Virus record (IMG/VR): IMGVR_UViG_3300033074_002003
From: a virus
Reading direction: 5' to 3' (one strand)
DNA length: 53,056 nt
Shown piece after piece: positions 4,188 through 19,998 of the stretch. The first letter of the stretch is position 1. Every line of letters begins with the position of its first letter. The notes under the pieces are model-generated. The model saw only the letters and a list, made by a program, of their open reading frames with translations. It did not search any database and was not told the origin of the DNA. The position numbers and the translations under genes were made by a program.

Positions 4188-4898
4188 ATGTACGTCTCCT
4201 GTACCGTAGACCCAAACTTGCACATAGACGTCGAGACGTGTCAGGTCAAACAACCTATCGTTGTTCGTGTCAATGAGTTTGATGAGAAATCGGCGCAGAT
4301 CTTTGCGAGACAGGTTTCTATCGCAGAGGACATGGGACAGCCAATAATCCCTGTCGTGATAGACTCATACGGTGGAGATGTCTACAGTCTCCTCGCGATG
4401 GTGGACGTCATCAAATCTTGCAAGGCGATCGTGGCTACGATCGTCGAGGGAAAGGCGATGAGCTGCGCTGCCGTACTGTTCTCTTGTGGCACAGAGGGCT
4501 ATCGATTCGTCTCCGAGCACGCGACAGTGATGATCCATGACACATGGCAGGAAGACGATCGCCCGCGGAAAGCAGAGGATCTGAAGGTAGACGCCGCAGA
4601 ACTCGGGCGTATCAACAAGCTCTTCTACGAGATCCTCGCGGGCTCCACGGGTCACGATCCACAGTATTTCATCGATATGCTCTCGAAACACAATCGAGCG
4701 GACGTGTACTTCAGTGCGCAGGAAGCTGTGAAGCACAATATTGCGAATCACATCGGGATTCCTGACCTGACGCTCGAAGTGGCTGTGTCGTACAAGATTT
4801 CACTGACTGACGCACCCGAACAAGCTCCGCTCGCCGCATTGGTCTCAGACTTGCCGAAAAAATCCGTGCGAAAGAAAAAAGAGGCGGCACCGCGATGA
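4188..4898 (+). CDS. ClpP-like serine peptidase (S14 family)
   Basis: 'IIPVVIDSYGGDVYSLLAMVDVIKSCKAIVATIVEGKAMSCAAVLFSCG...ATVMIHD' matches ClpP core (INSPGG-like, GxAxSxA Ser, MIH His). Confidence 0.7.
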   Translation: MYVSCTVDPNLHIDVETCQVKQPIVVRVNEFDEKSAQIFARQVSIAEDMGQPIIPVVIDSYGGDVYSLLAMVDVIKSCKAIVATIVEGKAMSCAAVLFSCGTEGYRFVSEHATVMIHDTWQEDDRPRKAEDLKVDAAELGRINKLFYEILAGSTGHDPQYFIDMLSKHNRADVYFSAQEAVKHNIANHIGIPDLTLEVAVSYKISLTDAPEQAPLAALVSDLPKKSVRKKKEAAPR

Positions 4899-5116
4899 AC
4901 GCTGAGAATCGCAAGAGGATCGTAGAGGCGGCACGACGTATGGGCGACGAGCTGAACGGTCGCCTCCCGGAACACCGAAATCACCCTGACGGTAGAAATT
5001 CGTATGCCCACGTCTGGAGCGTCCTGAAGTCGCGATTCGGTGACTACAAAGAGCGGCCTGACGATGAGTTTGACGATATCATGCGCGCTATCGAGTCGTG
5101 TAAGTCAGATTTGTAA
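4895..5116 (+). CDS. hypothetical protein
   Basis: 73-aa ORF, ATGA-type junction with upstream gene. Confidence 0.35.
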   Translation: MNAENRKRIVEAARRMGDELNGRLPEHRNHPDGRNSYAHVWSVLKSRFGDYKERPDDEFDDIMRAIESCKSDL

Positions 5117-5179
5117 ATTTCCCACTTGAGCGGTATGATGTGCCTACTATGGGCGACCGTACCAGGGGGAAGAACTGAC

Positions 5180-6394
5180 ATGGGCGGGAATGCAAGGGCG
5201 ATCGATCGCGCCACAGGCAAAGAGATGCTCTTTGAGGGCAAACTCGCACACGCCGAGCGCATACACACCACTGCATTTGACGGGAAGTTCGCTTGGTACG
5301 TTCTCAAGACGCTTCTGCTGCTCGATCACGAGTGTGATAGCATCTGGGCTCAGAGCTCATTTGCACACCACGAGCTCTTCGGAAAGTGCCGGGCGTTCTC
5401 GGGTTCGTCAAGGTTGCTAATGGCATCTGAGACGAGCGGAAACAGAACACCTGAGCACTTGAGAGTGTTAGGTGATATCGATGTGATGATCCCACACGAG
5501 AAATTGGGTGAGCTGTTTGACGTTCTCGCGAGACTAGAGGGAAAGTCGCTGTGGCACAATCGTGTAACGTACGTCGGGCAGAACAAACACCAGCAGTCGG
5601 GACATCAGATCAACGCGATCTTCGCGTTTGCGCATCCGGAGTCGAGTTGGGAGCAGTTTGTTCAAATCGATTTTGAGGGTGTCGAATTCGATGCCAACGG
5701 GGTGCCAACTGAGTTCAGCGAGTTCGCACACTCCACATCACCCGCCGATGCTGACGCTGGCATCAAGGGCGTCGCGCACAAATATCTCCTGACAAATTTG
5801 ATCCGCGCCGCGTCAGAGCTGCAAGATGCGCTCGTATTGACGGAGAAATCTCCACCCCCGCCAGACTGTCGCATCTCGATGTCAAAGAAAATTCCCAGAG
5901 AATACGCGTTCTCTGTCGATCGCGGCCTCAGAAAGAAGCTCGAACCGGTCATGTACAACGGCGCGCAGTTTCGTGTCGGTGATAAGAGGGTATTTCGCGA
6001 GCTGGCGACAGACGAAAGCATCTACGATACTAACATCGCGAATATTGCGAAAGCTGCGCTGGGGAAGGGCGTTCACCAGAGCTACACTCATCCCTTTGAT
6101 GCGGGCGCGTGGACAATGTGGTCATTCGTGGGACTGTTGTTCCTCTGTCGTCACTACAGAAGCAACGCGATTATGTCGCGCGCGTTCGAACTGATGCTCG
6201 TAGAGAACCTCTACGGACCCGGTGCGCAGAAGCTCTCTCGTACGAGCTGTTGTGTAGATCAGGACGTGAAGAACAAGATCATCGAGAGGATGTACGTCGC
6301 GTTCCCGCACCTGAAAGAAGAGTTCGGTGAGCGTGTCGATGAGATGTCGCGCAAGTTTCAGGAGAACTACTTCGATGCTCGATCTCTCGATTAA
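5180..6394 (+). CDS. hypothetical protein, possible Pol-beta-type nucleotidyltransferase fold
   Basis: GGGGGAAG SD 8 nt before ATG at 5180; 'FSGSS...RVLGDIDVMIP' loosely resembles G[SG]...DxD NTase motif; located between Pnk and RNA ligase. Confidence 0.4.
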   Translation: MGGNARAIDRATGKEMLFEGKLAHAERIHTTAFDGKFAWYVLKTLLLLDHECDSIWAQSSFAHHELFGKCRAFSGSSRLLMASETSGNRTPEHLRVLGDIDVMIPHEKLGELFDVLARLEGKSLWHNRVTYVGQNKHQQSGHQINAIFAFAHPESSWEQFVQIDFEGVEFDANGVPTEFSEFAHSTSPADADAGIKGVAHKYLLTNLIRAASELQDALVLTEKSPPPPDCRISMSKKIPREYAFSVDRGLRKKLEPVMYNGAQFRVGDKRVFRELATDESIYDTNIANIAKAALGKGVHQSYTHPFDAGAWTMWSFVGLLFLCRHYRSNAIMSRAFELMLVENLYGPGAQKLSRTSCCVDQDVKNKIIERMYVAFPHLKEEFGERVDEMSRKFQENYFDARSLD

Positions 6395-7751
6395 GAAGGC
6401 AAACCTATCACAACAGCTGCCCCGCAGTTGTGAAGTCACAGAGAAGTACGACGGCACGAAACTGTCACTGCTGCGTGCTGGAGACGAAACTCTCCTGTCT
6501 TACAAGGGAATCATTATCGATCCGGTCGTTTTCCCGCGCGAGAAATCGGCGCTCGATGAGATTCGCGAGTTCTCGTGTGGGTACTCTCAGTACGCTCTTG
6601 TAGCTTCTGATGCACAAGGAAGCTTCGGTGGGTGTTTCGACGGCGCGGAGATGCTCTTCGAGTTCATCCAGCGCAAGCCGACAGTACTCCGCGAGTACGA
6701 CAGATATCACGATTTGATCGCAATCGCCTCAGCAGCATCAGATTATTTGCTTTCAGGCCAACGAGTTTACACTCTCCCGAGAACAGTGTGGTATCCGTGC
6801 TACCCAGAGAAGAACGGATGGCTTCCCGTCTTCCAGACACCAGCGAAAATTCTAGTTCCTGGGCAGGTGAGAACATACATTGACCTCAAAGAATATATTG
6901 AGGGCACCCAGTCGTCACTTGGAGGTGTTGCAGAGGGATGTGTTGTTCATAACGGGGCTACGGGTGAACTCACAAAGATCGTTCGAGACGACCAGTGCGA
7001 TCGTACGGTAAGAGCGAAGAAAAAAGCCATGACTGTTGGGTTTGATCGCGATCAGAAGTATTGGAACGCTGTGATCGGTTCGGCCTCACGTGTGGTCTCG
7101 AATTTCGAACACCCGTTTTTTTTCGACGGAGCACGACTGGAAGCGGCCCACGCTGCAGAGTTTCACGACTTCGTCAACGTGTCGCCACACAATCGGATGC
7201 GCGTCGCCGACGACATCTTCTTGTCAGCGACAATTGCGAGCTCGACAGTGAGGACATTCCCAGGCAACAAGATAGGATTTTACCCTGGCGCTTTCAAACC
7301 CCTGCATCGCGGGCACTGGAACGTCATCAAGCGTGCTTCTGAAGAGTGCGACACCGTGTTGGTCGTCGCTTCTGAGTCGGATCGCTGTGAAATTTCGCAC
7401 TCGCAGATGTTCTTGGCATGGAAGAAAATCTTCTTCGAGAAGTTGCCGCGCAATGTCGTGTTTCGCTTCTCGAAGAATCCGATACAAGAGTGCAAGAACG
7501 AGATCGAGAACATCCAAAAATACACGGGAGCTCGTACGACGATTTACACGGGCGAAGACGATGCAGACAAGCGACGGTCTGCATTTTTGGGTCAGCACGT
7601 CTCGATTGTCCCGCGCAACGGTGTCTCAAGCACAGAATTTCGTGCGGCGCTTCGACAGAGGATCCAACGAAGTGCACCCGACGAATTCATGCCAGAGTGT
7701 CTAAGCAGTCTAGAGTCGCGGCTGTACGTAGAACTTTTCCGTGACCGTTGA
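6375..7751 (+). CDS. RNA ligase (ATP-dependent, KxDG family) fused to C-terminal HIGH-motif nucleotidyltransferase (NadD/NMNAT-like) domain
   Basis: AGGAGA SD before ATG 6375; ligase motif I 'EKYDGTK', motif IV 'AEGCVVH', motif V 'LTKIVRD'; C-terminal 'GFYPGAFKPLHRGHWNV' (HxGH) and terminal 'VSSTEFR' (NadD ISSTxIR-like). Confidence 0.65.
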   Translation: MLDLSIKKANLSQQLPRSCEVTEKYDGTKLSLLRAGDETLLSYKGIIIDPVVFPREKSALDEIREFSCGYSQYALVASDAQGSFGGCFDGAEMLFEFIQRKPTVLREYDRYHDLIAIASAASDYLLSGQRVYTLPRTVWYPCYPEKNGWLPVFQTPAKILVPGQVRTYIDLKEYIEGTQSSLGGVAEGCVVHNGATGELTKIVRDDQCDRTVRAKKKAMTVGFDRDQKYWNAVIGSASRVVSNFEHPFFFDGARLEAAHAAEFHDFVNVSPHNRMRVADDIFLSATIASSTVRTFPGNKIGFYPGAFKPLHRGHWNVIKRASEECDTVLVVASESDRCEISHSQMFLAWKKIFFEKLPRNVVFRFSKNPIQECKNEIENIQKYTGARTTIYTGEDDADKRRSAFLGQHVSIVPRNGVSSTEFRAALRQRIQRSAPDEFMPECLSSLESRLYVELFRDR

Positions 7752-8523: not shown

Positions 8524-9153
8524 ATGGGTTTCAAAGCACAGGTACTGATCGCGGATCCCCCGTGGGAATTTGACGACGAACTGAAGGCGATGCGCGACGG
8601 TACGGATCGAAGCGCAGTGTCGCAGTATCCCGTCCTGAACCTCGATGAGATTGCGAAGCTCGATGTTCGACAGTGCGTCGATACGTCTGGGTGTGTCTTG
8701 GCGCTCTGGTGTCCCAGCGTGCTGATCCCAGAGGGACTGCGTGTGATGTCGTCTTGGGGATTCAACTTCAAGGGCACGTATGTCTGGGTGAAGTCAAAGA
8801 AGACTGAGAGCGCGCTCGAGAAGATCGGGATCACGAAAGATCTCAATGACATTCTCGGGTTTGGAATGGGAAGGCTATTTCGACAGACACACGAGGTGGC
8901 TCTCATCGGAACGATGGGCAAAGTCTACGCGGGCCTCGCGAACAAGTCACAGCGGTCAGTGTGTGTCGCCGAAAACAAAGGACACTCGATCAAACCAGAT
9001 TCGCTTCACGAGAGCCTCGAGCTCATGTTTCCGGCAGCTCAGAAGCTAGAGCTGTTCGCGCGTCGCCCGAAAGACGGTTGGACGTGTATTGGCAATGAAG
9101 TGTGCGAGGGCGAAGACATTCGTGACTCGCTGAAGAGACTCGCTTCTGAATGA
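8524..9153 (+). CDS. MT-A70 family N6-adenine methyltransferase
   Basis: 'LIADPPWEFDD' DPPW catalytic motif near N-terminus, ~200 aa typical of phage MT-A70-like MTases. Confidence 0.7.
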   Translation: MGFKAQVLIADPPWEFDDELKAMRDGTDRSAVSQYPVLNLDEIAKLDVRQCVDTSGCVLALWCPSVLIPEGLRVMSSWGFNFKGTYVWVKSKKTESALEKIGITKDLNDILGFGMGRLFRQTHEVALIGTMGKVYAGLANKSQRSVCVAENKGHSIKPDSLHESLELMFPAAQKLELFARRPKDGWTCIGNEVCEGEDIRDSLKRLASE

Positions 9154-9168
9154 AAGACTCGCGCGCAG

Positions 9169-9720
9169 ATGGCAAAGTCAAAGAGAAAATTCACAGACGC
9201 TCAAAAGAGAGTGCTGCTTCTCAGCTGTAACTACGAGGTACTGAACTTCGTCTCGGACGTTCGCGCGATTCTCATGCTTACACGTGAGAAGGTGGACGTC
9301 ATCTCGCACTGGGACGATCACACTTTCAATACACCGAACGTCAAACTTCCGATTCCATCGATCATCCGTCTCAGATCGCCGATCCGTCGCAAGCACGGGC
9401 CCGTGCGGTATCACAGGATTGTAGTGTTTAGGAGAGATGGTTGGCGCTGCCAGTACTGCGGAATTACTGTCTCGAAGCGCGACGCGACCATCGATCACGT
9501 GAACCCACAGTGCAAGGGTGGGCGTACAAACTACAAGAACTGCGTCACCGCGTGTCGTGCTTGCAATCACAAGAAAGCGTTCAAGACACCCGAAGAAGTC
9601 GGAATGGCACTCATGTCAAAGCTCGAGATGCCGAACGTGCTTCACCTCTACAACATTGACGTGAGACACGGGTGGCACCCGTCATGGGACGATTTCATCG
9701 GGCACCTCAAGTCTACTTGA
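9169..9720 (+). CDS. HNH endonuclease
   Basis: 'GWRCQYCGITVSKRDATIDHVNPQCKGGRTNYKNCVTACRACNHKK' HNH/Zn-finger signature. Confidence 0.8.
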   Translation: MAKSKRKFTDAQKRVLLLSCNYEVLNFVSDVRAILMLTREKVDVISHWDDHTFNTPNVKLPIPSIIRLRSPIRRKHGPVRYHRIVVFRRDGWRCQYCGITVSKRDATIDHVNPQCKGGRTNYKNCVTACRACNHKKAFKTPEEVGMALMSKLEMPNVLHLYNIDVRHGWHPSWDDFIGHLKST

Positions 9721-9808
9721 GTGCCGCTCGTACGTCCCTACAAATTTCAGAATATCTGGCGTGTAGTTCGCGGTACAGGGGCCAATTTCCCCTAAGGAGA
9801 CGATCACA

Positions 9809-10072
9809 GTGAGCGTAAGATTCGGCACCAATGGTCTCGAGAAGTGCTTGGTTTTCGATATCGGGTCCAAACATCACATTCTTGAAGTACAAGCTGTCAG
9901 CAAACCCCTGCACAGTAGCGAAATCATTGACATTTCTTGTTTTCGCCCACTCGATGACTACAGACCGCTTTGCGTCGAACAGGATGCTGACGGATCTTTC
10001 ATGGTGGTTGCTCCCAAGAAGATTGATGACATAGTCGCGTGTGTGCTGCTCGACAAAGGATACGCCTCGTAG
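9809..10072 (+). CDS. hypothetical protein
   Basis: GTG start preceded by AAGGAG SD (9 nt); lower-GC island. Confidence 0.45.
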   Translation: MSVRFGTNGLEKCLVFDIGSKHHILEVQAVSKPLHSSEIIDISCFRPLDDYRPLCVEQDADGSFMVVAPKKIDDIVACVLLDKGYAS

Positions 10073-10136
10073 GCGATCTGAAAAGTAATCGTAGAGAGAC
10101 GTGTGAAGCTTCATTAAGATACATAGGAGTGAAATC

Positions 10137-10358
10137 GTGGAAAGAATCAATACGCTGCGCCAAGGGTTGGCACTTGCCAACGACGAGCCGATCCCGTTGA
10201 AGTTTGGAATCATGTTCCCACGCGGGAACATGGCGATCGTCGCAGGAGGGGCGTCACAGGTCTCGTACGAAAAGAAGACGTTCATCTGCCTCGACCTGAT
10301 GCCTCCGCACCTGCAAGAGCAGATCAATACGTTTATCGAATTCGCTTCGAAGCCCTGA
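10137..10358 (+). CDS. hypothetical protein
   Basis: GTG start preceded by AGGAG SD (8 nt); convergent with Dps-like gene. Confidence 0.45.
   Translation: MERINTLRQGLALANDEPIPLKFGIMFPRGNMAIVAGGASQVSYEKKTFICLDLMPPHLQEQINTFIEFASKP
10211..10232. repeat. perfect 9-bp inverted repeat CATGTTCCC-acgc-GGGAACATG
   Basis: read directly; lies inside ORF 10137..10358. Confidence 0.6.
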
Positions 10359-10361
10359 GCT

Positions 10362-10943
10362 TCAGCAGATCGAAGCGCGTCTAAGCAGGTATGACGCTCT
10401 CTCACGATCATCGATGAGCTGCGAAAGCATGTTGTCGATGCCCTTTGAGAGCGTGCCTGCCGACTCCATTTTCATGATCGCGTAGTTTGTAGCGCCCACG
10501 AGGCATTCCTCTGCTGCGAGGCTCAACCTCACGAGATCGGTGTCAGACGGTATCACAGACGTTTCCGAGCAGTAGATCGCCTTCATCCACTCTGTTACAG
10601 TCGCGACCAACCGAGCGACCCGCGTCATCTCGACGAGAGCAGCGCCGCCAGCTCCGACAGCCTTCTCAGCAACAGCGTCAACGTGCTCGAGCACCGATGA
10701 GTAGACGTCCTCAAACATCTTGTGATCGCCGAAGAAATCCTGCCCCCGTGCCTGCCAGTGGTGTGTCTGGTGAATGTGCGCGACACACTTGGTGAAGACA
10801 AGGACTGTCGCGAGCTCAGAGAACTGTGACTCCATGAACTCAATTTCGATTTTATCGAAAAGCTCTGTCACGTTCCTTGCCTGTGACTCTTCACCCGCTC
10901 CGACGACCGCAAACGTGTTGAACGGTGAGAACATTCGCTTCAT
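10362..10943 (-). CDS. Dps/ferritin-like protein
   Basis: 'HHWQARGQDFFGDHKMFEDVYSSVLEHVDAVAEKAVGAGG' matches Dps HWxxxGxxFxxxHxxFEE ferroxidase motif; AGGA SD before ATG (minus-strand start 10943). Confidence 0.6.
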   Translation of the reverse strand: MKRMFSPFNTFAVVGAGEESQARNVTELFDKIEIEFMESQFSELATVLVFTKCVAHIHQTHHWQARGQDFFGDHKMFEDVYSSVLEHVDAVAEKAVGAGGAALVEMTRVARLVATVTEWMKAIYCSETSVIPSDTDLVRLSLAAEECLVGATNYAIMKMESAGTLSKGIDNMLSQLIDDRERASYLLRRASIC

Positions 10944-11030
10944 GTCGATCCTACCTGTGCGAGTAAGTATCTCTCTTCTGGATACACTGTGTGAGCACAC
11001 CGTAAAATAACAGAAGGTTACCGTGACGCG

Positions 11031-11246
11031 ATGAAAATACACACGCGATTCATAGTTTACGTCGTGTTGGCATTTGTGTGTGCGGTGATCACAGCCGTGT
11101 CTGTCACCATTTGCATCGTTGCGCCGCACATGATGAAGCTTGTGTTCCCGTACGTCGTATTTTCGTGCGTCATCTCTGGATTTCTGATCGGAATGATCGT
11201 AACGAACATTTCGTTCATCTTCTACGGAAAGAAGAGTGATGTCTAA
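11031..11246 (+). CDS. small membrane protein (2 predicted TM helices)
   Basis: 71 aa, two hydrophobic stretches; overlaps start of next gene. Confidence 0.45.
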   Translation: MKIHTRFIVYVVLAFVCAVITAVSVTICIVAPHMMKLVFPYVVFSCVISGFLIGMIVTNISFIFYGKKSDV

Positions 11247-12219
11247 AACTGACACTAGGTCTATCGTCCTCGTCACCGGCGGCGCGGGATTTCTTGGTTC
11301 GCACATCTGTGACAGGTACAAGGACAAGTATCACGTTGTCGTCGTCGATAATTTCATGACAGGTAGGCGTGAGAACGTACCGGCGGGGTGTGAGGTCATC
11401 TCGATTGACGTCACGAGCAATCTCTTCCTCGAAGAGATGCGGATGCTGTATTACAAGCGCGATATCTCGAGGATCTTCAACTTTGCGTGTCCCGCTTCGC
11501 CACCGAAGTATCAGCTCGATCCCGTTCACACGATGATGACGTCTGTCGTCGGCACGAACAACACGCTGAAGCTTGCGCGCGATTTCGGTTCGATCTTCGT
11601 GCAAGCTTCAACGAGTGAGGTTTACGGCGATCCGGAAGTTTCTCCACAAGCAGAGTCGTATCGAGGTTGTGTCAATACGATCGGTCCCAGAGCGTGTTAC
11701 GACGAGGGCAAGCGCGCCGCCGAAGCTCTGTGCTACGACTACGCTCGAATGGGCACCAACGTGAGGGTCGCTCGAATCTTCAACACTTACGGTCCGAGAA
11801 TGGATGTCGATGACGGTCGCGTCGTCACGAATTTCGTGAAGCAGGCGCTGCTCGGCGACGACATCACGATCTACGGTGATGGTTCGCAGACACGATCGTT
11901 CTGCTATGTCAGGGACCTCATTGACGGCATCGTTGGCCTCGCTGAGACACTGAGCCCGCCTCAGCACCCCGTGAACATCGGAAATCCCACCGAGTTCACA
12001 GTTCGTGAGCTTGCAGACAAGGTGCTCGAGCTGCTACCAGAATCAAAGTCAAAGATCGTCATGTGTGATCTCCCGACTGACGATCCGAAGCAGCGCAAAC
12101 CCGACATTGGTTGTGCCGAGAAGTACCTCGGGTGGAAAGCCGGAATTAAGTTGGGTTGGGGACTGTCGATGATGATCGATTACGTTCGTGATGAACTGAA
12201 AAGGATGGGACGCCTGTGA
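11236..12219 (+). CDS. UDP-glucuronate decarboxylase (UDP-xylose synthase)-like SDR
   Basis: 'LVTGGAGFLGSHICDR' Rossmann, 'ASTSEVYGDPEVSPQAESY...GPRACYDEGKRAAEALCYDY' (YxxxK) closely matches UXS/dTDP-glucose-dehydratase-type extended SDRs. Confidence 0.7.
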   Translation: MMSKTDTRSIVLVTGGAGFLGSHICDRYKDKYHVVVVDNFMTGRRENVPAGCEVISIDVTSNLFLEEMRMLYYKRDISRIFNFACPASPPKYQLDPVHTMMTSVVGTNNTLKLARDFGSIFVQASTSEVYGDPEVSPQAESYRGCVNTIGPRACYDEGKRAAEALCYDYARMGTNVRVARIFNTYGPRMDVDDGRVVTNFVKQALLGDDITIYGDGSQTRSFCYVRDLIDGIVGLAETLSPPQHPVNIGNPTEFTVRELADKVLELLPESKSKIVMCDLPTDDPKQRKPDIGCAEKYLGWKAGIKLGWGLSMMIDYVRDELKRMGRL

Positions 12220-12431
12220 AATCTCTGACCCTCAAGCAGTTTGCAGACTACTGTCAGCTCGTGATGTCGGTTACGGGCGCCGTTGCTTCCGCGTCGAAAC
12301 TTGTCGGCGTCATTCAGGCGCGCCGTGGCAAGAAGAAGTTGAAGTATGTGATCGATGTCGAGGGTCTCACCGAAGAGCAGGTTATCGAAGCCTACCGCGA
12401 GCTGATGTCCCGTTCTGTCGCGGCAAAGTGA
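12216..12431 (+). CDS. hypothetical protein
   Basis: 71-aa ORF overlapping previous stop. Confidence 0.35.
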   Translation: MKSLTLKQFADYCQLVMSVTGAVASASKLVGVIQARRGKKKLKYVIDVEGLTEEQVIEAYRELMSRSVAAK

Positions 12432-12465
12432 ACTTTTTCTCCCCTCGGTAGAGGATCGGAGTCCG

Positions 12466-15400
12466 ATGTCTCGAGTTCCCAATCGGTTCTTTGGGTTGCA
12501 CGCCCACACTAGCGTGGGTAGCCCGTATGATGGGCTGGGATACCCTCCCGAGCATTTTGATTTCGCCATCCAGAACGGGATGGACGGGATGGCGATCACA
12601 GACCACGGGAACATGAACTCGTTCTCGCACGCCTACATGGCAGCCGAGGCGCTTCACAAGAAGGGCGTACACTTCAAGTACGTTCCTGGGTGTGAACTTT
12701 ACCTGCATCCCGATCTCGAGGAGTGGCGCAAAGAGAAGCTCCTTGACGAAGAGCTCAAAGGGATGAAGAAAGAGGCCGAGAAAGCTCGGAAAGCCTCTCG
12801 AGAGAAGGTTGTGACGCCCATCGAGGTCGAGACAGACGAGGCGGGTGAGGTGATCGATGTCACCAACGCGCTCACGATCGAAAACGAGGATGAATCGAAA
12901 TCGCAGAAGTTCTTCAATCCCATCAATCGCAGGCACCATCTCGTGGTCCTCCCACGAACTTCGGAAGGCCTTCAGAGGCTCTTTAACCTCGTGTCGATGG
13001 GATACATGGATGGCTTCTATCGATTCCCGCGGGTCGATTATTCGATGTTGCGCGCTCTCTCGGAGCGCGAACACTTCATTGTCAGCACCGCTTGTATTGC
13101 GGGCGTCCTGAATTTCGAGGTGCTGTCTGAGCTCCGCGGCGTGCCGTTCGAAGAGCTTCACCCACGTCTCTTGGACGATCCGAACCTCATGGCGCGTGTG
13201 CAGAGTAACATCGGCAACGCAGTCGATCGCCTTGCCGATTCTGTGGGCCGAGACAACCTCTTTGTCGAGGTACAGTTCAACAAGCTCGGTGCGCAGCACG
13301 TCTGCAACCGAGCGCTCATTGAGTTTGCGTCGCGGAACGGGTTCAAGCTCCTCGCGACAGCGGACTCTCACTACTTCAAGCCGGAAGTCTGGAAAGAGCG
13401 CGAGATCTACAAGAAGCTCGGCTGGCTGAACTACACCGACATTGATCCATCGAGCCTGCCAAAGAGCGTCGATGACCTGAAGTGCGAGCTCTACCCGAAG
13501 AACGCCTCCCAGATGTGGGAGGAGTACAAGAAGGGCAAGGGCGACCTCTCTTTCTACGACGATGACACGATCTGCGACGCCATCGAGCGCTCGCACGACC
13601 TCGCGCACCAGATCATCGGCGACATCAAGCCAGATCGCTCGATGAAGCTGCCCTCTTACGTCGTCCCTGAGGGAAAGACGGCAATGAAGGCGCTCATGGA
13701 CGAGTGCAGAAGCGGGATGATTTCGCTCGGTATTGCGAACAAACCCGAATACGTCGAGAGGCTGAAGCACGAGCTCAAAGTCCTCAAAGAACTGAAGGAT
13801 AAGGACAAGGACTTCTCGATCTACTTCCTGACGCTGAAGGCGATCCTTGACGTCGCACGAGAGAAGATGCTTCTCGGTCCCGGCCGCGGGTCGGGTGCCG
13901 GCTCCCTCATCTGTTACTGCCTCAGGATCACAGACGTAGATCCCATCAAGTTCGAGCTTCTGTTCGAGCGATTCCTCAACATTCACCGCGCCGAGCCGCC
14001 CGATATCGACACCGACGTCGCCGATCGAGATATGCTGTTGGGTCTCCTTCGCGAGAGATTCGGCAGTGACAACGTCATCCCAATCTCCAACTACAACACG
14101 TTCAAGCTCAAGACGCTCGTGAAGGACGTCGCGCGGTTCTACGGCGTTCCGTTCGAAGAGGCGGGCGCTGCTACGAAGACGGTCGACGAGGACGTTCGAA
14201 AGGCCGTGCTGAAGCACGGCATGGACAAAAACCTTTTCGTTCTTACGTACGAGGACGCGCTGAAGCACAGCCCGCCGTTTCGCGAGTTCCTCGAGAAGTA
14301 TCCACACGTCGCCGAGCCGATGCAGGTTCTCTTCAAACAGAACAAGGCACTCGGTCGACACGCGGGAGGTGTGATCGTCTCCGAGAAGATCAAGGAGCGT
14401 ATGCCCCTGATCACCTCAAAGGGAGAACCTCAGACACCGTGGGTCGAGGGGCTCAATTACAAGCACCTCGAAGAGTTCGGATGGGTGAAATTTGACCTGC
14501 TCGGCCTCGAAACGCTGCGAATCATTGCGCGAGCGATCGAGCTGATCCTGAAGCGTCGCTGCGGGATCGATCACCCGACCTTTGCGGATGTGAAGAAGTG
14601 GTTCGAAGAGAACATGTCCCCGCAAGTCATCGACTTTGACGATCCACACGTTTACGATCGCGTCTATAATGCTGGCAGGTGGGCGGGCGTATTTCAGCTC
14701 ACCGAATCGGGTGCGCAGAGGTTGTTCACGCGGGCGAAGCCAATGTGTCTCAATGACATTGCGGCTCTCACTTCAGTATACCGTCCAGGACCGCTCGCAG
14801 CGGGCGTCGATGACCTCTACATCGATGCGAAGAACGTGAAGCCGTACGACTGGGGGCACCCACTCATCAACGCGACGCTCGCGCCGACGTACGGGCTCAT
14901 CATCTTCCAGGAGCAGGTGATGCAGCTCGCGCACGAAATCGGCGGGTTCCCACTCGATGAGTGTGACAAGGTGCGCAAGGCGATCATGAAGCGCTCGATC
15001 TCGGGCGGCGACGAGGCGAAGAAGAAGGCCCAGGAGCTCAAAGAGAAGTTCGTGAAGGGCGCAGTCACGAAGGGAATCCCGGAAAGCATCGCCGACAACC
15101 TCTACGAGAAGATCCTGTACTTCGCTGGGTACGGTTTCAACAAGTCGCACGCGATCTCGTATGCAATGGATTCGTTCTGGTGCGCGTGGTTGATGACGTA
15201 CTACGAGCCCGAGTGGCTGTGCGCGTACCTCGAGTCGAAGTCAGGAAATCCTGATGACCGCGCGAAGGCATTCGGCGAGGTGAAGAGCCTCGGGTACGAG
15301 ATCGTTCCGATCGATATCAGCTACGCGACGAGCGGGTGGACGATCATCGACGGCAAGAAGTTCATGCCCTCGATGTCATCGTGTAACGGTGTCGGTGGCA

Positions 15401-16065
15401 CTGCCCTCGAAGAGCTCGAGAGCATGCGACCCTTCTCGTCTCTGAAGGAGATCCTGTGGCACGAGGACGGGAAGTGGCGACCCAGCAAGTTTAACAAGAA
15501 GGCGCTCGAGTCCCTCATCAAAATCAGGGCGTTCGAGTCACTCGATATCGTTGGTGAGGGCAAGCTCTTCGAGTCGTACAAGCAAATGCATGCCGTCCTC
15601 ATCGAAGGGTCCGTAGAGATCAAGAAGAGCGGCAAGCGCGATCCTTTCTGCGGGCAGAAGGCGTTCGAGGCCCTCATTGAATCAACGAAGGGCATCGGTG
15701 AGTGGACCAAACGGGAGCTCGCCGAATTCTCTCGTGAGGTGCTGGGTTCAACTGACGTCGGACTCTTGGTGACACCGGCAACGCAGGACCGCCTCGCCGA
15801 GAAGGGTGTGCGACCCATCGACGCCTGGGACAAGAAGGACCTCTACTGGGCCGTAATCACCGACTGTGTCGTGAAGAAGACGAAGAAAGGCAAGGACTAC
15901 CTCCTCTTCAAGCTGATGGGTGTCGGTGGCAAGGACGTAAAGTGCTTCTGTTGGGGTTGGAAGGGCGACAAGATGTACGTGCCCAACACACCCATCGTCT
16001 TGGAACTAGAGAAGGGCGACTTCGGTTTCTCGACGCAGGCATGGCGCGTGCGGGAGATCAAGTGA
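12466..16065 (+). CDS. dnaE: DNA polymerase III alpha subunit (DnaE-type, PHP + polymerase core)
   Basis: N-terminal PHP 'GLHAHTSVGSPYDGLG', polymerase 'LGPGRGSGAGSLICYCLRITDVDP', 'FNKSHA', 1199 aa. Confidence 0.9.
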   Translation: MSRVPNRFFGLHAHTSVGSPYDGLGYPPEHFDFAIQNGMDGMAITDHGNMNSFSHAYMAAEALHKKGVHFKYVPGCELYLHPDLEEWRKEKLLDEELKGMKKEAEKARKASREKVVTPIEVETDEAGEVIDVTNALTIENEDESKSQKFFNPINRRHHLVVLPRTSEGLQRLFNLVSMGYMDGFYRFPRVDYSMLRALSEREHFIVSTACIAGVLNFEVLSELRGVPFEELHPRLLDDPNLMARVQSNIGNAVDRLADSVGRDNLFVEVQFNKLGAQHVCNRALIEFASRNGFKLLATADSHYFKPEVWKEREIYKKLGWLNYTDIDPSSLPKSVDDLKCELYPKNASQMWEEYKKGKGDLSFYDDDTICDAIERSHDLAHQIIGDIKPDRSMKLPSYVVPEGKTAMKALMDECRSGMISLGIANKPEYVERLKHELKVLKELKDKDKDFSIYFLTLKAILDVAREKMLLGPGRGSGAGSLICYCLRITDVDPIKFELLFERFLNIHRAEPPDIDTDVADRDMLLGLLRERFGSDNVIPISNYNTFKLKTLVKDVARFYGVPFEEAGAATKTVDEDVRKAVLKHGMDKNLFVLTYEDALKHSPPFREFLEKYPHVAEPMQVLFKQNKALGRHAGGVIVSEKIKERMPLITSKGEPQTPWVEGLNYKHLEEFGWVKFDLLGLETLRIIARAIELILKRRCGIDHPTFADVKKWFEENMSPQVIDFDDPHVYDRVYNAGRWAGVFQLTESGAQRLFTRAKPMCLNDIAALTSVYRPGPLAAGVDDLYIDAKNVKPYDWGHPLINATLAPTYGLIIFQEQVMQLAHEIGGFPLDECDKVRKAIMKRSISGGDEAKKKAQELKEKFVKGAVTKGIPESIADNLYEKILYFAGYGFNKSHAISYAMDSFWCAWLMTYYEPEWLCAYLESKSGNPDDRAKAFGEVKSLGYEIVPIDISYATSGWTIIDGKKFMPSMSSCNGVGGTALEELESMRPFSSLKEILWHEDGKWRPSKFNKKALESLIKIRAFESLDIVGEGKLFESYKQMHAVLIEGSVEIKKSGKRDPFCGQKAFEALIESTKGIGEWTKRELAEFSREVLGSTDVGLLVTPATQDRLAEKGVRPIDAWDKKDLYWAVITDCVVKKTKKGKDYLLFKLMGVGGKDVKCFCWGWKGDKMYVPNTPIVLELEKGDFGFSTQAWRVREIK

Positions 16066-16193
16066 TGAGGCGCTGGGATATCGCAACACTGTTGATTGTC
16101 GTGTCGCTCGCTGTCGGATCGCTGTCAAATGACGCCACCCGCGCGCAGGGTGTCATTGTCGGAATTTGCTGCGCGGTACTGGGAATAAAATGA
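16066..16193 (+). CDS. possible small membrane peptide (42 aa)
   Basis: ATG directly follows dnaE TGA (TGATG); 'IATLLIVVSLAVGSL' hydrophobic helix. Confidence 0.25.
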
Positions 16194-16202
16194 GCGCCGC
16201 TG

Positions 16203-16580
16203 TCAATCTTCAAATACGACCTGTTCAAGAGCAGTTACTGGAATTCGATCGGGTGTCCAATACGCACCGTCACCCGCGTCAAGATCGTGGTAGAAAACAG
16301 TGCCAGTGGGCAATTTGTTGACGTGGACAATAAAAGCTTCGCTTTGCCCAGCGTGGCCGATTATGTCATACATGTCGAGAGCTTCCCTTAGACTATCCAT
16401 GAAGAAAATTGCCGGAACGGGTGTGTCCCAGTTGTTGTAGGGTATCAATCCGTTCTGAAGAATTAGAGGAACATTTCGCGAGGATGTAGCGTGATAGAGC
16501 ATGTCAGGAACATTCTTCGCTTTTTTCATCTCCATTGTTTCTCTAATGAGTTTTCGAAGTTCGTTGAGCGAAATTTTCAT
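16203..16580 (-). CDS. hypothetical protein with N-terminal leader 'MKISLNELRKLIRETM' (paralog family member B)
   Basis: internal ATG at 16580 gives leader matching 7793 and 47867 genes; 'LYHATSSRNVPLILQNGL' region. Confidence 0.5.
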   Translation of the reverse strand: MKISLNELRKLIRETMEMKKAKNVPDMLYHATSSRNVPLILQNGLIPYNNWDTPVPAIFFMDSLREALDMYDIIGHAGQSEAFIVHVNKLPTGTVFYHDLDAGDGAYWTPDRIPVTALEQVVFED

Positions 16581-16612
16581 GCATTTAGGTATGTGAACAG
16601 GAGTCGGTACTA

Positions 16613-16933
16613 ATGAGCGCAAAATTTGAGAACGAAACGCATCTTACGCGCGAGCAATTTGTCGAGCTGCTGCACTCTGACGTCGATGCGTTCAGATGGC
16701 CACAAGACGACATGAAGCAGACATTCAGGGCGTGGATGAAGGAGTTCGTCACTGCCTCTCCGTGCATGCCCTACACGTTCATGAAGTGTGAGAAAGAGTC
16801 AAACAAGGACGTTCACACAGAGCACTGCTGTGTGCACCACGGGTGCAAATACAGCGATGCTGACTGCACTGTTGCGAAGGGGACGAAGTCACAATCATAC
16901 CCATGTGAGTGGTGCAACGAAGAGACGTGGTGA
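16613..16933 (+). CDS. hypothetical Cys-rich protein
   Basis: AGGAG SD 10 nt before ATG; 'CCVHHGCKYSDADC...CEWC'. Confidence 0.45.
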   Translation: MSAKFENETHLTREQFVELLHSDVDAFRWPQDDMKQTFRAWMKEFVTASPCMPYTFMKCEKESNKDVHTEHCCVHHGCKYSDADCTVAKGTKSQSYPCEWCNEETW

Positions 16934-16947
16934 AGGAGGCGCACGTG

Positions 16948-17193
16948 GGATATCACAAGAAGAAAATCGATCGGTACCCGTTCGGGACCGCGTACAAGAT
17001 CAAGGAAGAGTGCGAAGAGCTGCTCGATGCTTACGAACAGCAAGCGTCTATCCTGATGTTGTGTGAGCTCGCTGACCTCTACGGCGCGATGGAGGGATTT
17101 CTCACCGAGAGGTTTCCAGGCATCGGGATGAGCGACATCAGACAGATGTCTAACCTCACAAGGTCAGCCTTCCTCGAGGGAGAGCGAAAATGA
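16948..17193 (+). CDS. MazG-like nucleotide pyrophosphohydrolase (small all-alpha NTP-PPase)
   Basis: GAAGGAGG SD 5 nt before GTG 16948; 'KIKEECEELLDAYEQ...LCELADLYGAMEGF' MazG-like EExxE pattern. Confidence 0.5.
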   Translation, partial: GYHKKKIDRYPFGTAYKIKEECEELLDAYEQQASILMLCELADLYGAMEGFLTERFPGIGMSDIRQMSNLTRSAFLEGERK

Positions 17194-17378
17194 GAGCTGT
17201 GTTTCTCGCGTGCATTCTGCTCCTCATCTGTGGGTGTCAACAAAGCGGTGTGGGGAGGTGTGCGGAAGCGTGTCGTGTGTCTGGTGGGGCGATGCAGTTG
17301 TATTCCGGATTCACTGGTGAGTGCATCTGCACACCCAACACAATTCCGGCGCCCTCACAGTCGCAGGTGCCAAAGTGA
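17190..17378 (+). CDS. small lipoprotein
   Basis: signal peptide + lipobox 'LLLICGC'; ATGA overlap with upstream gene. Confidence 0.45.
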   Translation: MRAVFLACILLLICGCQQSGVGRCAEACRVSGGAMQLYSGFTGECICTPNTIPAPSQSQVPK

Positions 17379-18040
17379 AAGGGAACGTCTGGGAGTACAT
17401 CTCACAGTCGATAAATCTCTACCAGAACGCCGGGTACGAGTACATCGACGTCCCGTGGATCGTCACTCGTGAGGCACTCGCGGTTACATTGCCTCCCTAC
17501 AAGACGGGATTCAGTATCTTTGAGACCATACGTCTCAACAGCGAAGCGAATTGTCTCGTGGGTTCTGCGGAGCAATCGTTCATTGACATGATGATTTCCG
17601 GACACCCAGCGATGCGGGCGGGCGGTCGCTATGTTGCTGCATCTCCCTGCTTCAGGGACGACGCGCCCGACGAACTTCACAAGACGTGGTTCTTCAAGGT
17701 CGAGCTCATTGACGTGTTCCCGAGCGCTCTTACTCGCGTCGGTCCGAAGCGCGAGGAGGCGTGGAGAATGTGCAACACCGCACTGCGGGTGATGAGGGAC
17801 GTCGCGGGAGCGGTTGACGATGAGATGAAGATCGTCGAGACGCCCGAGGGCTTCGATATCGAATACTGCGGCATCGAAGTGGGTTCGTACGGCGTCCGTG
17901 AGCTCAATCATCCCAAAGCGAAGTACGAGTGGGTTTACGGTACAGGGATGGCGATTCCGAGGTTTCAGATCGCGTCCGATATTCACCTGAAAGAATCTCG
18001 TAAGTACTGGGACAGATTTGTTGAGCCTACATCGGAATAG
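17375..18040 (+). CDS. class-II aminoacyl-tRNA-synthetase-like catalytic core protein (AsnA/EpmA/HisZ-like paralog)
   Basis: 'ASPCFRDDAPDELHKTWFFKVELI' matches class II motif 2 (fRxE...H..eF..lE); GTGA start/stop overlap with lipoprotein gene. Confidence 0.5.
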   Translation: MKGNVWEYISQSINLYQNAGYEYIDVPWIVTREALAVTLPPYKTGFSIFETIRLNSEANCLVGSAEQSFIDMMISGHPAMRAGGRYVAASPCFRDDAPDELHKTWFFKVELIDVFPSALTRVGPKREEAWRMCNTALRVMRDVAGAVDDEMKIVETPEGFDIEYCGIEVGSYGVRELNHPKAKYEWVYGTGMAIPRFQIASDIHLKESRKYWDRFVEPTSE

Positions 18041-18049
18041 TTAGGGTTT

Positions 18050-18631
18050 ATGCGTCCCCTGATTAAAGAGCTCGTGTCGTTACTTGTCGAAGCTGTTCTT
18101 TCGGACGATGATGCAGATATTCTGTCTGACAAATACGAGTTAGAGGCGAAAGACAAGGATCCAACAATTGCACGCGAGCGCATGCGTTGGATTGCTCGCG
18201 CGCACGGAACCCCACTCGCGGATTCGATCGCCGCTATCGATTGGCGTCTGAGAGACTTTGATTTCGTGCGCACGGTCCTGGAAGATCTAGATCGTCGTGT
18301 GTGTGTGAAGGTCGCGCTCGAGTGTGTCAGGCCCACTGTAGAGCTCGCGCCCGCAACATACGAGGATAGTGAGGAGTGGGCGAAGATCGCGATGGAAGCA
18401 GCTGAGTCTTGGCTTCGTGGTGAAACAAGCACCGAGGAGTGTTTTCATGCTGCTTCTGGTGCTATGGGCGTGGGTGACGAATTTGCTGTGGCTGCTGGTT
18501 GGGTCGCTTACGCAGCCTCTTACGCATCATCGCCCGGCGAGGCAGCTGCTGAGGCAATTTCCCGTGTTCAGCCTTCTCGCCGCGTATTTTTTCAAGCTGC
18601 GATCGACGCATGGCACGCTGAACACGGTTGA
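18050..18631 (+). CDS. hypothetical protein
   Basis: 193-aa ORF. Confidence 0.4.
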   Translation: MRPLIKELVSLLVEAVLSDDDADILSDKYELEAKDKDPTIARERMRWIARAHGTPLADSIAAIDWRLRDFDFVRTVLEDLDRRVCVKVALECVRPTVELAPATYEDSEEWAKIAMEAAESWLRGETSTEECFHAASGAMGVGDEFAVAAGWVAYAASYASSPGEAAAEAISRVQPSRRVFFQAAIDAWHAEHG

Positions 18632-18993
18632 ACACGTCCGGTCACTGCGGTAAAATACCTTACATGCTCACGCATCACTGCTACGGAAATCCGTGCTTGT
18701 TGTGTCACCCGACCACCGAGGGAAACCAATCAATGGTCGAAGATTTGCTGCACGAGAGGTTGGTTCCCGCGACGGGAATTAGCGTCGTGTTAGCAGAGCT
18801 CTTGGAGGACATATTCCGCTACGGCATCGAGGAAGACGCGTACTGGTGGCGTCAGACTGACAATCAACTATCGCTCTCTAAGATCGAGCTAGAGCGCACA
18901 CACGTCAGTGATACCTCACTCGAGGCGAAGTTGCTCGACAAGTTGATCAGTTACATGAAGAACAGCGACGAAGTACGGAGAGAACGCCCATGA
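18628..18993 (+). CDS. hypothetical protein
   Basis: 121-aa ORF, ATGA overlap. Confidence 0.4.
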   Translation: MNTSGHCGKIPYMLTHHCYGNPCLLCHPTTEGNQSMVEDLLHERLVPATGISVVLAELLEDIFRYGIEEDAYWWRQTDNQLSLSKIELERTHVSDTSLEAKLLDKLISYMKNSDEVRRERP

Positions 18994-19019
18994 CACACTG
19001 CCTCTTTACGATCTAATTG

Positions 19020-19994
19020 TCAAAAGTGGCGTGTGCTGTCAAAATATGCAACGCTAGTTAGTGGCAGTGCATCATCATAAGTCACAATAGCGTCATCAGT
19101 GATTCTCAGCAGGTGCAATTTGTGTTCAACGAACCACAGTTCTTGAGCTCGATCTGTCTCATATTTCTTGACGATAGAATTTGATCGAGGATTCATCGAT
19201 TGTCGGTGTTCTTCTAATGGACGATCAAGTCCATGCCAATAGACACCGTCGAGTTGAATGTACGTGCCCGAGCTTCGGATCAGGAAATCGAACGACCATT
19301 GCTTCGGTGTCCCTGGAACGTAGACTTGTCTTTCGATGTCGTCAGCTCCGTATTGAGTACACAAGATCACATAGAGGAGATCTTCAGGTTTTGACTTGCG
19401 ATAAGTCCCATTTCGTTTCATAGTTTCGTGTGCACGTTTCGCGTGAGCAGCCCAATCTACTTTTGATTTGATCTCATCATTTCCAAGTGCAGATTTGTGA
19501 CCGTATCTGGCAAGATTTGTCTTGTGCATTTTCTCGATCGTTGAAGGGAGTTTGGATGTGTGTTCGACACCGTACTCGGCAAGCCAGCGAGCTTTTCTTC
19601 GATTCACGACGTCCGAATTTTTCATTGGGCTAATATCACCATATCGTTCTTCACACGTGTGTCTACGCTTTGTTTCTACTACGTCAGACTGTGTGTGATG
19701 TTCTGTTCCGTATCGAGCGAGTGATGTTTGACGTATCTTTTTGTCTAAGACATTGTTCTTTTTGTGCGCGTGTGAAACACACGTTCGTGAACAGAAATGA
19801 ATTTCTTTCTTCAAAATCGCTGTATAATGTGCAGCGCCCAAGTAATGTCGTTTGCACTGATTGCACTCGAGTTTTACCCGATAGTGTGTGGTTTGTTTAC
19901 CTGTTGGCGTAGTAACGGGCACCTCGATGACTTGGATGATCATTGTTCTGTGACTAAGTAATATGTAGCTAAGCAAAAATTTGCTGAGGAACAC
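19020..19994 (-). CDS. free-standing homing-endonuclease-like protein (Zn ribbon + 'xRYG' repeats + DUF559/Vsr-like PD-(D/E)XK nuclease domain)
   Basis: 'CNQCKRHY...CSRTCVSHAH'; four ~22-aa repeats (ARYGTEHHTQSDVVETK / EERYGDISPMKNSDVVNRRK / AEYGVEHTSK / ARYGHKSALGNDEIKSK); C-terminal 'SFDFLIRSSGTYIQLDGVYWH'; AT-rich island, opposite strand to neighbours. Confidence 0.6.
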   Translation of the reverse strand: MFLSKFLLSYILLSHRTMIIQVIEVPVTTPTGKQTTHYRVKLECNQCKRHYLGAAHYTAILKKEIHFCSRTCVSHAHKKNNVLDKKIRQTSLARYGTEHHTQSDVVETKRRHTCEERYGDISPMKNSDVVNRRKARWLAEYGVEHTSKLPSTIEKMHKTNLARYGHKSALGNDEIKSKVDWAAHAKRAHETMKRNGTYRKSKPEDLLYVILCTQYGADDIERQVYVPGTPKQWSFDFLIRSSGTYIQLDGVYWHGLDRPLEEHRQSMNPRSNSIVKKYETDRAQELWFVEHKLHLLRITDDAIVTYDDALPLTSVAYFDSTRHF

Positions 19995-19998
19995 TTGA

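Follow-up and report, generated by a model that had tools for sequence, protein, structure and literature searches.

The 53,056-nucleotide viral DNA of IMG/VR record IMGVR_UViG_3300033074_002003 (the window, meaning this whole stretch) carries at 11239-12219 (+) a gene that very likely encodes a decarboxylase of the UDP-glucuronate decarboxylase/UDP-xylose synthase (UXS) family, an assignment that is very strong. It also carries a gene module with which the phage probably makes glycosylated 5-hydroxymethylcytosine (5hmC) DNA, judging from a hydroxymethylase signature and conserved gene neighbourhoods. At the core of this module are a candidate DNA glycosyltransferase (GT) of 432 amino acids (aa) (GT432), a nucleotide-sugar 4-epimerase of the short-chain dehydrogenase/reductase (SDR) superfamily (SDR2) and a thymidylate synthase (TS) homolog (HMase). 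The best explanation overall, to which we give a probability of about 0.5, is that the UXS supplies a pentose donor as an accessory of this 5hmC-glycosylation system. We put the chance that the UXS product ends up on DNA slightly short of even: associations between UXS and DNA-modification genes recur in three unrelated phage settings, while the dispensability of UXS and the lack of a demonstrable pathway link in this genome weaken the case.

A UXS-like decarboxylase had been proposed here in a sequence-only reading of the window, and the proposal stood up well. The uninterrupted open reading frame (ORF) at 11236-12219 (+), 327 aa from its GTG, has exactly the coordinates given in that reading, and its translation includes the peptide quoted there (...GPRACYDEGKRAAEALCYDY...). 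The true start is probably the codon after the GTG, ATG 11239, giving a 326-aa product, since this equals the length of a metagenomic protein (P0001) with 96% identity; the ATG is closely preceded by a purine-rich GAAGAG. In a phmmer search of the Protein Data Bank (PDB), human UXS1 (2b69/4gll/4m55/4lk3) was the top match, with an E-value of 2.7e-92 and 312 bits over residues 8-322, versus 118 bits for the next family (8vr2), at most 67 for dTDP-glucose 4,6-dehydratases, 55 for UDP-apiose/xylose synthase and 45 for ArnA. Pfam returned general families only, namely Epimerase (E 3e-45) and GDP_Man_Dehyd, and the best named homologs among 8000 matches were bacterial proteins called 'UDP-glucuronic acid decarboxylase family protein' (53-60% identity). 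With human UXS1 and Sinorhizobium meliloti Uxs1 the window protein shares ~50-53% full-length identity, the extended-SDR architecture, the NAD motif and six active-site residues. The Sinorhizobium Uxs to which it is 53% identical over its full length appears, going by the description in a 2018 paper, to be the ortholog of the biochemically characterised SmUxs1.

The six residues (T118, E120, Y147, K151, N176 and R277 in human UXS1 numbering) show no variation across an alignment of 108 UXS sequences, among them the window protein and 14 jumbo-phage copies. The same is true of the motif TGGAGFxGSH, which reads TGGAGFLGSH in the window and thereby follows the TGGxGFxGSH pattern of N-terminal NAD binding in extended SDRs; the DNF aspartate is also present and is conserved among the phage copies. 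The gene is under purifying selection, with a ratio of nonsynonymous to synonymous substitution (dN/dS) of 0.049 at dS 0.40 between the window and a sister phage, and its GC content is like that of adjacent genes. UXS enzymes oxidise UDP-glucuronate at C4, decarboxylate the 4-keto acid and re-reduce it to UDP-xylose. With its residues intact, the window protein is highly likely to be active as a UXS: with bound NAD it would oxidise C4 of UDP-glucuronate via Tyr147/Thr118/Lys151, and the 4-keto acid would be decarboxylated in the environment of Glu120/Arg277/Asn176 and then re-reduced to UDP-xylose.

No NCBIfam equivalog cut-off was attained by the protein, and two other identities within the family neighbourhood were rejected. 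The sequence-only reading had named, as an outcome that would speak against it, a position among dTDP-glucose 4,6-dehydratases together with a complete dTDP-rhamnose gene set. What was found is an RmlB model score of 93 bits against a cut-off of 365 (TIGR01181), a TSE motif (ASTSEVYGD) instead of the dehydratase TDE, and no rmlA, rmlC or rmlD gene in the window or its flanks. An ArnA-type or bifunctional UDP-4-keto-pentose synthase was rejected on scores of 72 against 294 bits (PRK11908) and 51 against 777 bits (PRK08125). The window UXS shares with the ArnA C-terminal domain and RmlB the SDR superfamily and a first step of 4-oxidation, but scores far under the cut-offs of both.

The HMase gene of the module (30729-31712, +; Pfam TS) has the CMP 5-hydroxymethylase MilA as its best PDB match (E 8e-47, versus 2e-22 for ThyA). 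Its motifs are QLDVPC, containing L143D and Cys146, and RSSDLILGITND, in which D169 is kept and N177D occurs. N177D gives cytosine specificity, L143D/E accompanies hydroxymethyl products, and D169N marks 5-hydroxy-dCMP synthases (PMC13326640). Because it combines L143D and N177D with an unchanged D169, the protein is by signature a 5-hydroxymethyl-(d)CMP synthase. Its reading as a 5-hydroxy-dCMP synthase, of the kind that leads to 5-hydroxycytosine (5hoC), was rejected, since neither the window protein nor any of the 31 homologs beside GT432 has lost D169. A separate ThyX (upstream in the lineage) and a Tmk are also encoded.

The further module genes in the window, all on the plus strand, are GT432 (19999-21297), a P-loop dNMP (thymidylate)-kinase-like gene (27300-27848; phrog_761, E 3e-13), which in relatives lies directly 5' of GT432, SDR2 (29655-30593; the ORF opens at 29628, and ATG 29655 gives 312 aa), a thymidine kinase (TK; 31720-32301; Pfam TK, E 1e-31) and a dCMP deaminase (32288-32743; Pfam dCMP_cyt_deam_1, E 6e-21), whose ORF opens at 32210 and which is called in a 151-aa form on identical contigs. 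We surveyed 29 IMG/VR loci (L012-L040) with GT432 relatives of 33-42% GT identity. An HMase lies within ~1-5 kb of GT432 in 28 of them, each HMase reading RSxD...D, and SDR2 adjoins both GT432 and HMase in 26. The usual order is dNMP-kinase-like gene, GT432, SDR2, HMase, TK and dCMP deaminase; in the window these genes are spread across 12 kb by helicase, nuclease and homing-endonuclease insertions, and those of L007 are likewise spread. The gene content of the 'subclass II' 5hmC clusters, a GT beside a sugar epimerase near a 5hmC-forming enzyme, is found in most of the 29 loci. The module belongs to this established type of DNA hypermodification system, its GT coming from an unannotated family. 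Recurrent module ORFs of ~387 aa and ~185 aa in relatives, considered as possible additional modification enzymes, look by eye like a CCA-adding-type nucleotidyltransferase and Ntn/proteasome-like hydrolases.

GT432 had no Pfam, PHROG, NCBIfam or PDB sequence match. Its AlphaFold model, built from a 39-sequence alignment, has a predicted local distance difference test score (pLDDT) of 94.5 and a predicted template modelling score (pTM) of 0.90, and its Foldseek matches include GlgM, MshA (3c4q), sucrose-phosphate synthase (SPS) and BshA (3mbo) at E-values of 1e-10 to 1e-7, and also OtsA. Altogether, 337 PDB structures matched at E<=1e-3, GT4/GT5/GT20-type enzymes foremost, with TM scores of ~0.6. 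GT432 is therefore confidently predicted to be a GT-B glycosyltransferase with two Rossmann-like domains, in agreement with the GT-B assignment made at 19999 in the sequence-only reading. Phage GTs matched by the model include the SP-15 GT and RB69 ORF047c, and 3c4q, 3mbo and SPS are the templates reported for the DNA arabinosyltransferases of RB69/DLP3 (PMC13326640). No tblastn match to GT432 was found in 50,697 deposited phage genomes, while the family counts ~200 proteins in a large protein database besides the 29 IMG/VR loci. We regard GT432 as a candidate new family of DNA glycosyltransferases, presumably acting on 5hmC. Independently of the UXS, it is a widespread unannotated GT-B family tied to cytosine hydroxymethylases in huge phages without a deposited genome.

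The second SDR epimerase that the sequence-only reading had placed at 29655 proved to be of epimerase type, with the features of NAD-dependent nucleotide-sugar 4-epimerases of the WbpP/WbgU/TviC kind. SDR2 matches UDP-N-acetylhexosamine (HexNAc)/hexose 4-epimerases in the PDB (WbpP/WbgU/6dnt-type; E 1e-58 to 1e-50), scores 180 bits with the TviC-like and 161 bits with the GalE NCBIfam model (cut-off 262), both under cut-off, and carries the motifs SSSSSVYG and YALQK (YxxxK) and a gatekeeper Thr (GDV[MK]HTxAD).

In the mechanism that we propose, the lineage very probably replaces dC by 5-hydroxymethyl-dC, which would be glycosylated after replication. The L143D/N177D TS homolog would form 5-hydroxymethyl-dCMP, the dedicated dNMP-kinase-like protein would act next, and dCMP deaminase, TK and ThyX would keep up the supply of dTTP. 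GT432 would be the glycosyltransferase and would receive its donor from the WbpP-type SDR2. The UXS would be an accessory 'glycan-diversifying' gene that uses UDP-glucuronate, most likely supplied by the host (no UDP-glucose dehydrogenase, Ugd, was found in ~73 kb), and adds a pentose donor to the DNA-decorating pool, namely UDP-xylose, or UDP-L-arabinose if SDR2 accepts UDP-xylose. The sugar coat changed in this way would alter how the DNA is seen by restriction enzymes and modification-dependent nucleases.

Several characterised systems resemble parts of this scheme. In phages, a GT and an adjacent sugar epimerase glycosylate 5hmC in DNA, the GT being epimerase-dependent, with hexose, HexNAc and hexuronic acid (HexA) products and neither a pentose nor a decarboxylase reported (bioRxiv 10.1101/2023.12.21.572611). 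As in these 'subclass II' clusters, GT432 and SDR2 are adjacent in relatives and stand beside a 5hmC-forming enzyme. However, a methyltransferase and TET form 5hmC there, whereas a TS-homolog hydroxymethylase acting at the nucleotide level is expected here; GT432 lacks a Pfam model, and the UXS decarboxylase is additional. With the T-even phages (gp42, gp1, alpha/beta-GT, and the TET-associated glycosyltransferase, TAGT, in T2/T6) the lineage shares a hydroxymethylase with L143D/E and N177D, a dNMP kinase, a dCMP deaminase and a GT-B enzyme expected to act after replication. It differs from them in that T-even phages use host UDP-glucose directly and encode no epimerase or decarboxylase, and in that no alpha/beta-GT or TAGT homolog is detectable by sequence in the jumbo lineage. 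For TAGT (PF20691), a hidden Markov model (HMM) built from 14 UXS-adjacent TAGTs found nothing (E<=1) in the window or its jumbo relatives.

Pentoses on phage cytosines are known from two further systems. RB69/DLP3 carry a pentose on cytosine in DNA, as arabinosyl-5-hydroxycytosine (NAR 2026, PMC13326640), and encode a cluster of nucleotide kinase, GT-B enzyme and TS homolog resembling the module here, with shared structural templates for the GT. They differ in making 5-hydroxy-dCMP (D169N), whereas D169 is kept in the window HMase, for which a hydroxymethyl product is therefore expected. Moreover, their donor UDP-arabinofuranose comes from ribulose-5-phosphate via isomerase, kinase, phosphatase and pyrophosphorylase (PMC13326640), and not from decarboxylation of UDP-glucuronate; a 2018 paper suggested that RB69 makes UDP-arabinose by way of Uxs/Uxe, a route that was never found there. 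The Shewanella phage Thanatos likewise combines a phage-encoded UDP-xylose route with a pentose-type cytosine modification, but without a UXS: its TH1_063 is a UDP-xylose pyrophosphorylase using xylose-1-phosphate and UTP, and its TS homolog is a 5hoC synthase (PMC12838424).

The sequence-only reading called UDP-xylose synthesis not a typical phage function. This holds only relatively, since at least 246 IMG/VR contigs and ~10 deposited phage records carry UXS relatives. When a random half of the flanking genes was scanned in the non-jumbo loci among 80 retrieved, PF20691 (TAGT) was the second commonest family flanking UXS. The T6-type transferase proposed to add a second glucose to glucosyl-hydroxymethylcytosine is assigned to this Pfam family. 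In 14 viral contigs (L042, L046, L058, L074, L081, L084, L090, L091, L093, L095, L098, L101, L109 and L120) a TAGT directly abuts the UXS, with a median gap of 3 nt, in the order primase-helicase, often a ParB_N-like gene, TAGT, UXS, small and then large terminase. By this arrangement, ParB_N-like/TAGT/UXS is a candidate compact 'xylosyl-DNA' operon.

The cultured 115-kb Pseudomonas phage QdP_Psa3 (L124, PV055685.1 1-12770) carries a TS homolog, a P-loop kinase, a UXS of 43% identity, a helicase and Ugd within 12 kb, and also a nucleotidyltransferase. Its TS homolog (RSNDLVWGNMIN and KDRAC) has L143D and keeps N177, and is thus of uracil type and resembles dUMP hydroxymethylases; no GT is annotated, and searches of the first 60 kb with the TAGT and GT432 HMMs found none. 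These HMMs also gave no match around the UXS of LR756500. By a GGxCxxKD pattern and tblastn with two phage Ugds in all loci, Ugd was found only in L113, L083, L123 and L124 and not in the window or its lineage. The jumbo-related L083 encodes a three-domain UDP-glucose/GDP-mannose dehydrogenase (Ugd; 4566-5864) between Tmk and NT5C, ~4 kb upstream of its UXS (9989-10990), both standing among ThyX, Tmk and NT5C; at the place expected for GT432, L083 has a 799-aa protein with a GH5 cellulase domain. The three settings, namely the jumbo lineage with the GT432 module, the small ParB-like/TAGT/UXS phages and QdP_Psa3, lead us to a broader and more tentative proposal, to which we give clearly less than even odds: phages may have recruited UXS repeatedly to make pentosylated hydroxymethyl-pyrimidine DNA, with xylosyl- or, after epimerisation, arabinopyranosyl-5hmC or -5-hydroxymethyluracil (5hmU) as an undescribed base and GT432 as a new DNA-GT family.

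Within the jumbo lineage, the UXS is always found upstream of the module, flanked by a ferritin-like gene and PolIII-alpha; this holds for the window, L001-L008, L022, L027/L045, L030, L032, L041/L038, L088/L031 and L089, and in all jumbo relatives the surrounding genes serve replication and nucleotide metabolism. This position is kept across relatives of 47-59% identity, and the phage copies group together in a neighbour-joining tree, which points to long vertical maintenance.

A considerable body of evidence nevertheless weighs against a link between the UXS and DNA glycosylation. The UXS never lies within the module, its distance being 8 kb to GT432 and 18 kb to SDR2 and HMase. It is absent from the syntenic slot in L013, L014, L039, L023 and L026, which keep the module, so that the module needs no UXS; close pairs differ in it (present in L027 and L022, absent from L023 and L026, respectively), and UXS-positive genomes are scattered across the GT432 and SDR2 trees. 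These patterns fit an old accessory of the lineage with repeated losses. No informative column of GT432 or SDR2 co-varies with UXS: the three to four columns that separate the 8-9 UXS-positive from the five UXS-negative sequences are at variable sites. SDR2 was rejected as an ortholog of Uxe, as it is 30% identical to the GalE-type Sinorhizobium Uxe, scores 161 against 262 bits with GalE and never adjoins UXS; its gatekeeper Thr is of the kind seen in UDP-HexNAc epimerases and stays the same in genomes with and without UXS. An activity of SDR2 on UDP-xylose is possible, though it is no Uxe ortholog. In the window and its ~18-kb flanks, some 73 kb of a genome of roughly 330 kb, neither a second GT nor a TAGT was found, nor was the UDP-glucose dehydrogenase that the sequence-only reading had suggested looking for. 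In other viruses the majority of UXS loci are not beside a DNA GT: a GT2 is directly beside UXS in nine, an FkbM-methyltransferase/WavE-like protein is near it in a group of 21, and some loci have genes of lipopolysaccharide (LPS) type. Full-text literature searches turned up no mention of a DNA modification fed by UXS, of xylosyl-hydroxymethylcytosine or of xylosylated DNA.

From the UXS, epimerase and GT together, the sequence-only reading had pointed to the synthesis and transfer of a pentose-type sugar onto DNA bases or virion/host glycans. All three genes exist, but a joint pathway is not established, given the 8-18 kb between them, the UXS-less relatives and the 30% identity to Uxe. Between the two destinations, DNA is favoured: the GT and epimerase form part of a conserved module that also holds a cytosine hydroxymethylase and a dNMP-kinase-like gene. 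The link of the UXS itself to DNA is circumstantial. The phage gene also differs from bacterial Uxs, which stands in a Uxs-Uxe-GT2 operon, in lying among replication genes with no adjoining Uxe, GT or Ugd. No sugar-enzyme partner was found beside UXS in jumbo relatives, where its neighbours are, by eye, actin/ParM-like, J-domain/WGR, Dam and homing-endonuclease ORFs and, by Pfam, an M10-peptidase-like ORF and a PLD-like nuclease.

UDP-xylose might instead serve an acceptor other than DNA, such as virion or other phage proteins or the host envelope polysaccharide or LPS (for example in superinfection exclusion), with the UXS acting as an auxiliary metabolic gene (AMG). We hold this to be unlikely. 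In its favour, besides the many viral UXS loci away from DNA GTs, with their GT2 and FkbM/WavE-like neighbours, the UXS of phage Yong-DA lies in a Wzy/DegT/Ugd/export cluster, bacterial Uxs-Uxe-GT2 operons serve glycans, translation of the UXS in the window is coupled to that of a small protein with two transmembrane segments, and the DNA module of relatives does without UXS. Against it, GT432 is the only GT detected in the ~73 kb, the UXS sits in the replication and nucleotide-metabolism block of every jumbo relative, the small transmembrane ORF is not kept beyond sister phages, and the independent associations of UXS with TAGT and with a TS homolog favour DNA. A further possibility concerns flux. 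UDP-xylose is an allosteric inhibitor of UDP-glucose dehydrogenases, and the UXS could work as a metabolic valve that drains host UDP-glucuronate, blocking capsule, exopolysaccharide and 4-amino-4-deoxy-L-arabinose (L-Ara4N), or that inhibits host Ugd through UDP-xylose and so spares UDP-glucose and UDP-HexNAc for phage DNA glycosylation. Such a role, which the established inhibition, the solitary UXS with no dedicated GT adjoining it, its dispensability and repeated loss and the lack of Ugd in the window and flanks would all suit, is improbable in our view. L083 and QdP_Psa3 encode Ugd along with UXS, which suggests that UDP-xylose is wanted as a product, and elsewhere UXS stands in operons directly with TAGT or GT2 transferases.

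That the enzyme makes a different product, such as a UDP-4-keto-pentose of ArnA/U4kpxs type for an amino-pentose, or takes another UDP-uronate is very improbable. The failure to attain any NCBIfam equivalog model would allow it, but the ArnA match of 45 bits and the U4kpxs model score of 72 against 294 contrast with 312 bits for true UXS, all UXS-specific residues are kept, and the window showed neither an aminotransferase nor a formyltransferase. Although the nearest non-phage homologs are bacterial (53-60% identity), a recently captured bacterial passenger without phage function is effectively refuted by the selection and synteny data, that is, by the dN/dS of 0.049, the intact catalytic residues, the GC content like that of the neighbours, the position kept across relatives at 47-59% identity and the clustering of phage copies.

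The sugar coat of a phage's DNA determines which of the restriction, CRISPR and modification-dependent (type IV, glycosylase) defences are effective; such coats are also a source of enzymes for epigenetic sequencing chemistry. To our knowledge, the sugars known on DNA are glucose, other hexoses, HexNAc, HexA and arabinofuranose, none of them made via a UDP-glucuronate decarboxylase. Should the UXS feed a pentose to 5hmC or 5hmU, DNA modification would gain a further donor pathway and probably a novel base, and the Uxs route put forward for RB69 in 2018 would turn out to exist in a phage. Because E. coli lacks UDP-xylose, it would then also be clear how such products would escape heterologous screens in that host. 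A direct test of the hypothesis is feasible, since the cultured QdP_Psa3 has UXS and Ugd beside a pyrimidine hydroxymethylase-like gene.

In the immediate surroundings of the UXS, a 71-aa ORF with two hydrophobic segments by hydropathy (11031-11246, +) ends in a stop that overlaps the UXS start, and a second 71-aa ORF (12216-12431, +) begins with a GTG overlapping the UXS stop (GTGA). Both are kept solely in sister phages (tblastn matches in L001-L008 only). Upstream of this three-gene unit, a weak sigma-70-like promoter match (10979-11008, +; TGGATA-18-TAAAAT, 9/12) was the single match of a consensus scan near UXS in which 0.9 were expected, and the promoter and terminator scan around UXS gave results no better than chance. 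The ferritin/Dps-like gene (10362-10943, -; Pfam Ferritin) is divergent from the unit, and the order ferritin, UXS, PolIII-alpha is repeated in relatives. Elsewhere among viral UXS loci, AIR-synthase and OTCase genes neighbour the UXS in another locus group. In the 42.6-kb record of 'Aphanizomenon phage Yong-DA' (L123, ON073792.1), the polysaccharide cluster around the UXS comprises Wzy, a DegT aminotransferase, Ugd, a GDP-mannose dehydrogenase, a GT and an export protein; this is either an AMG island of an unusual sort or a record that does not represent a typical phage genome.

The window appears to be part of an uncultured jumbo phage from aquatic metagenomes, with no structural genes in the window itself. 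A GT identical to that at 19999-21297 was found on a 329,329-bp contig, the relatives in IMG/VR are viral contigs reaching 340 kb, and a search for near-identical DNA found no deposited phage matching the region 9000-21500. The genes of the window include PolIII-alpha, MT-A70 and N6/N4 methyltransferases, ClpP, exonucleases, TK, dCMP deaminase, two NUDIX genes and six tRNAs, together with HNH, GIY-YIG, TnsA-like and DUF7487 homing endonucleases and a helicase interrupted by intein halves. Identical contigs extend upstream and carry there DnaB, an intein-containing ribonucleotide reductase, ThyX, thymidylate kinase, RNA ligase and PNKP. The N6/N4 DNA methyltransferase (28086-28940, +; Pfam N6_N4_Mtase, E 1e-38) is directly 5' of SDR2, an order common to L007, L010 and L011, and with the MT-A70-type gene at 8524-9153 it makes two DNA methyltransferases, which suggests more layers of DNA modification.

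Mobile-element insertion is rampant in the lineage. The DinG/XPD-like helicase is fractured (21567-24430) into an N-terminal part with an intein N-half (21567-23174), a 270-aa ORF in another frame (23134-23946) and, in a third frame, an intein C-half with Helicase_C_2 (23873-24430), an arrangement resembling a split intein into which a free-standing ORF has been inserted; L007 encodes the helicase in one piece, as a 543-aa gene. PolIII-alpha is an intact 1199-aa gene in the window (12466-16065), and is broken by a 298-aa ORF in the sister phage L001 (10493-15502) and by intein/Hint pieces in L007 (1883-8009). A 474-aa protein (6327-7751) has a ligase-like KxDG motif (EKYDGT) in its N-terminal part and a cytidylyl/adenylyl-transferase domain (TIGR00125) in its C-terminal part, and in L032 (~13.5-16.5 kb) homologs of it and of the 422-aa ORFan upstream of it (5126-6394 in the window) lie inside the modification module, between HMase and TK. 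Two metabolic genes stand at 37434-38509, a CN_hydrolase (nitrilase/NAD-synthetase-like) gene and, after it, one resembling pterin-4a-carbinolamine dehydratase. Two nearly coextensive ORFs lie on opposite strands at 50156-51586 (-) and 50162-51571 (+); the minus-strand ORF is probably spurious, because only the plus-strand ORF has family support (AAA ATPase/DUF815). The six tRNA genes form a cluster at 51894-53006 (Lys-CTT, Ile-GAT, Ser-GCT, Asp-GTC, Gln-TTG and Gln-CTG).

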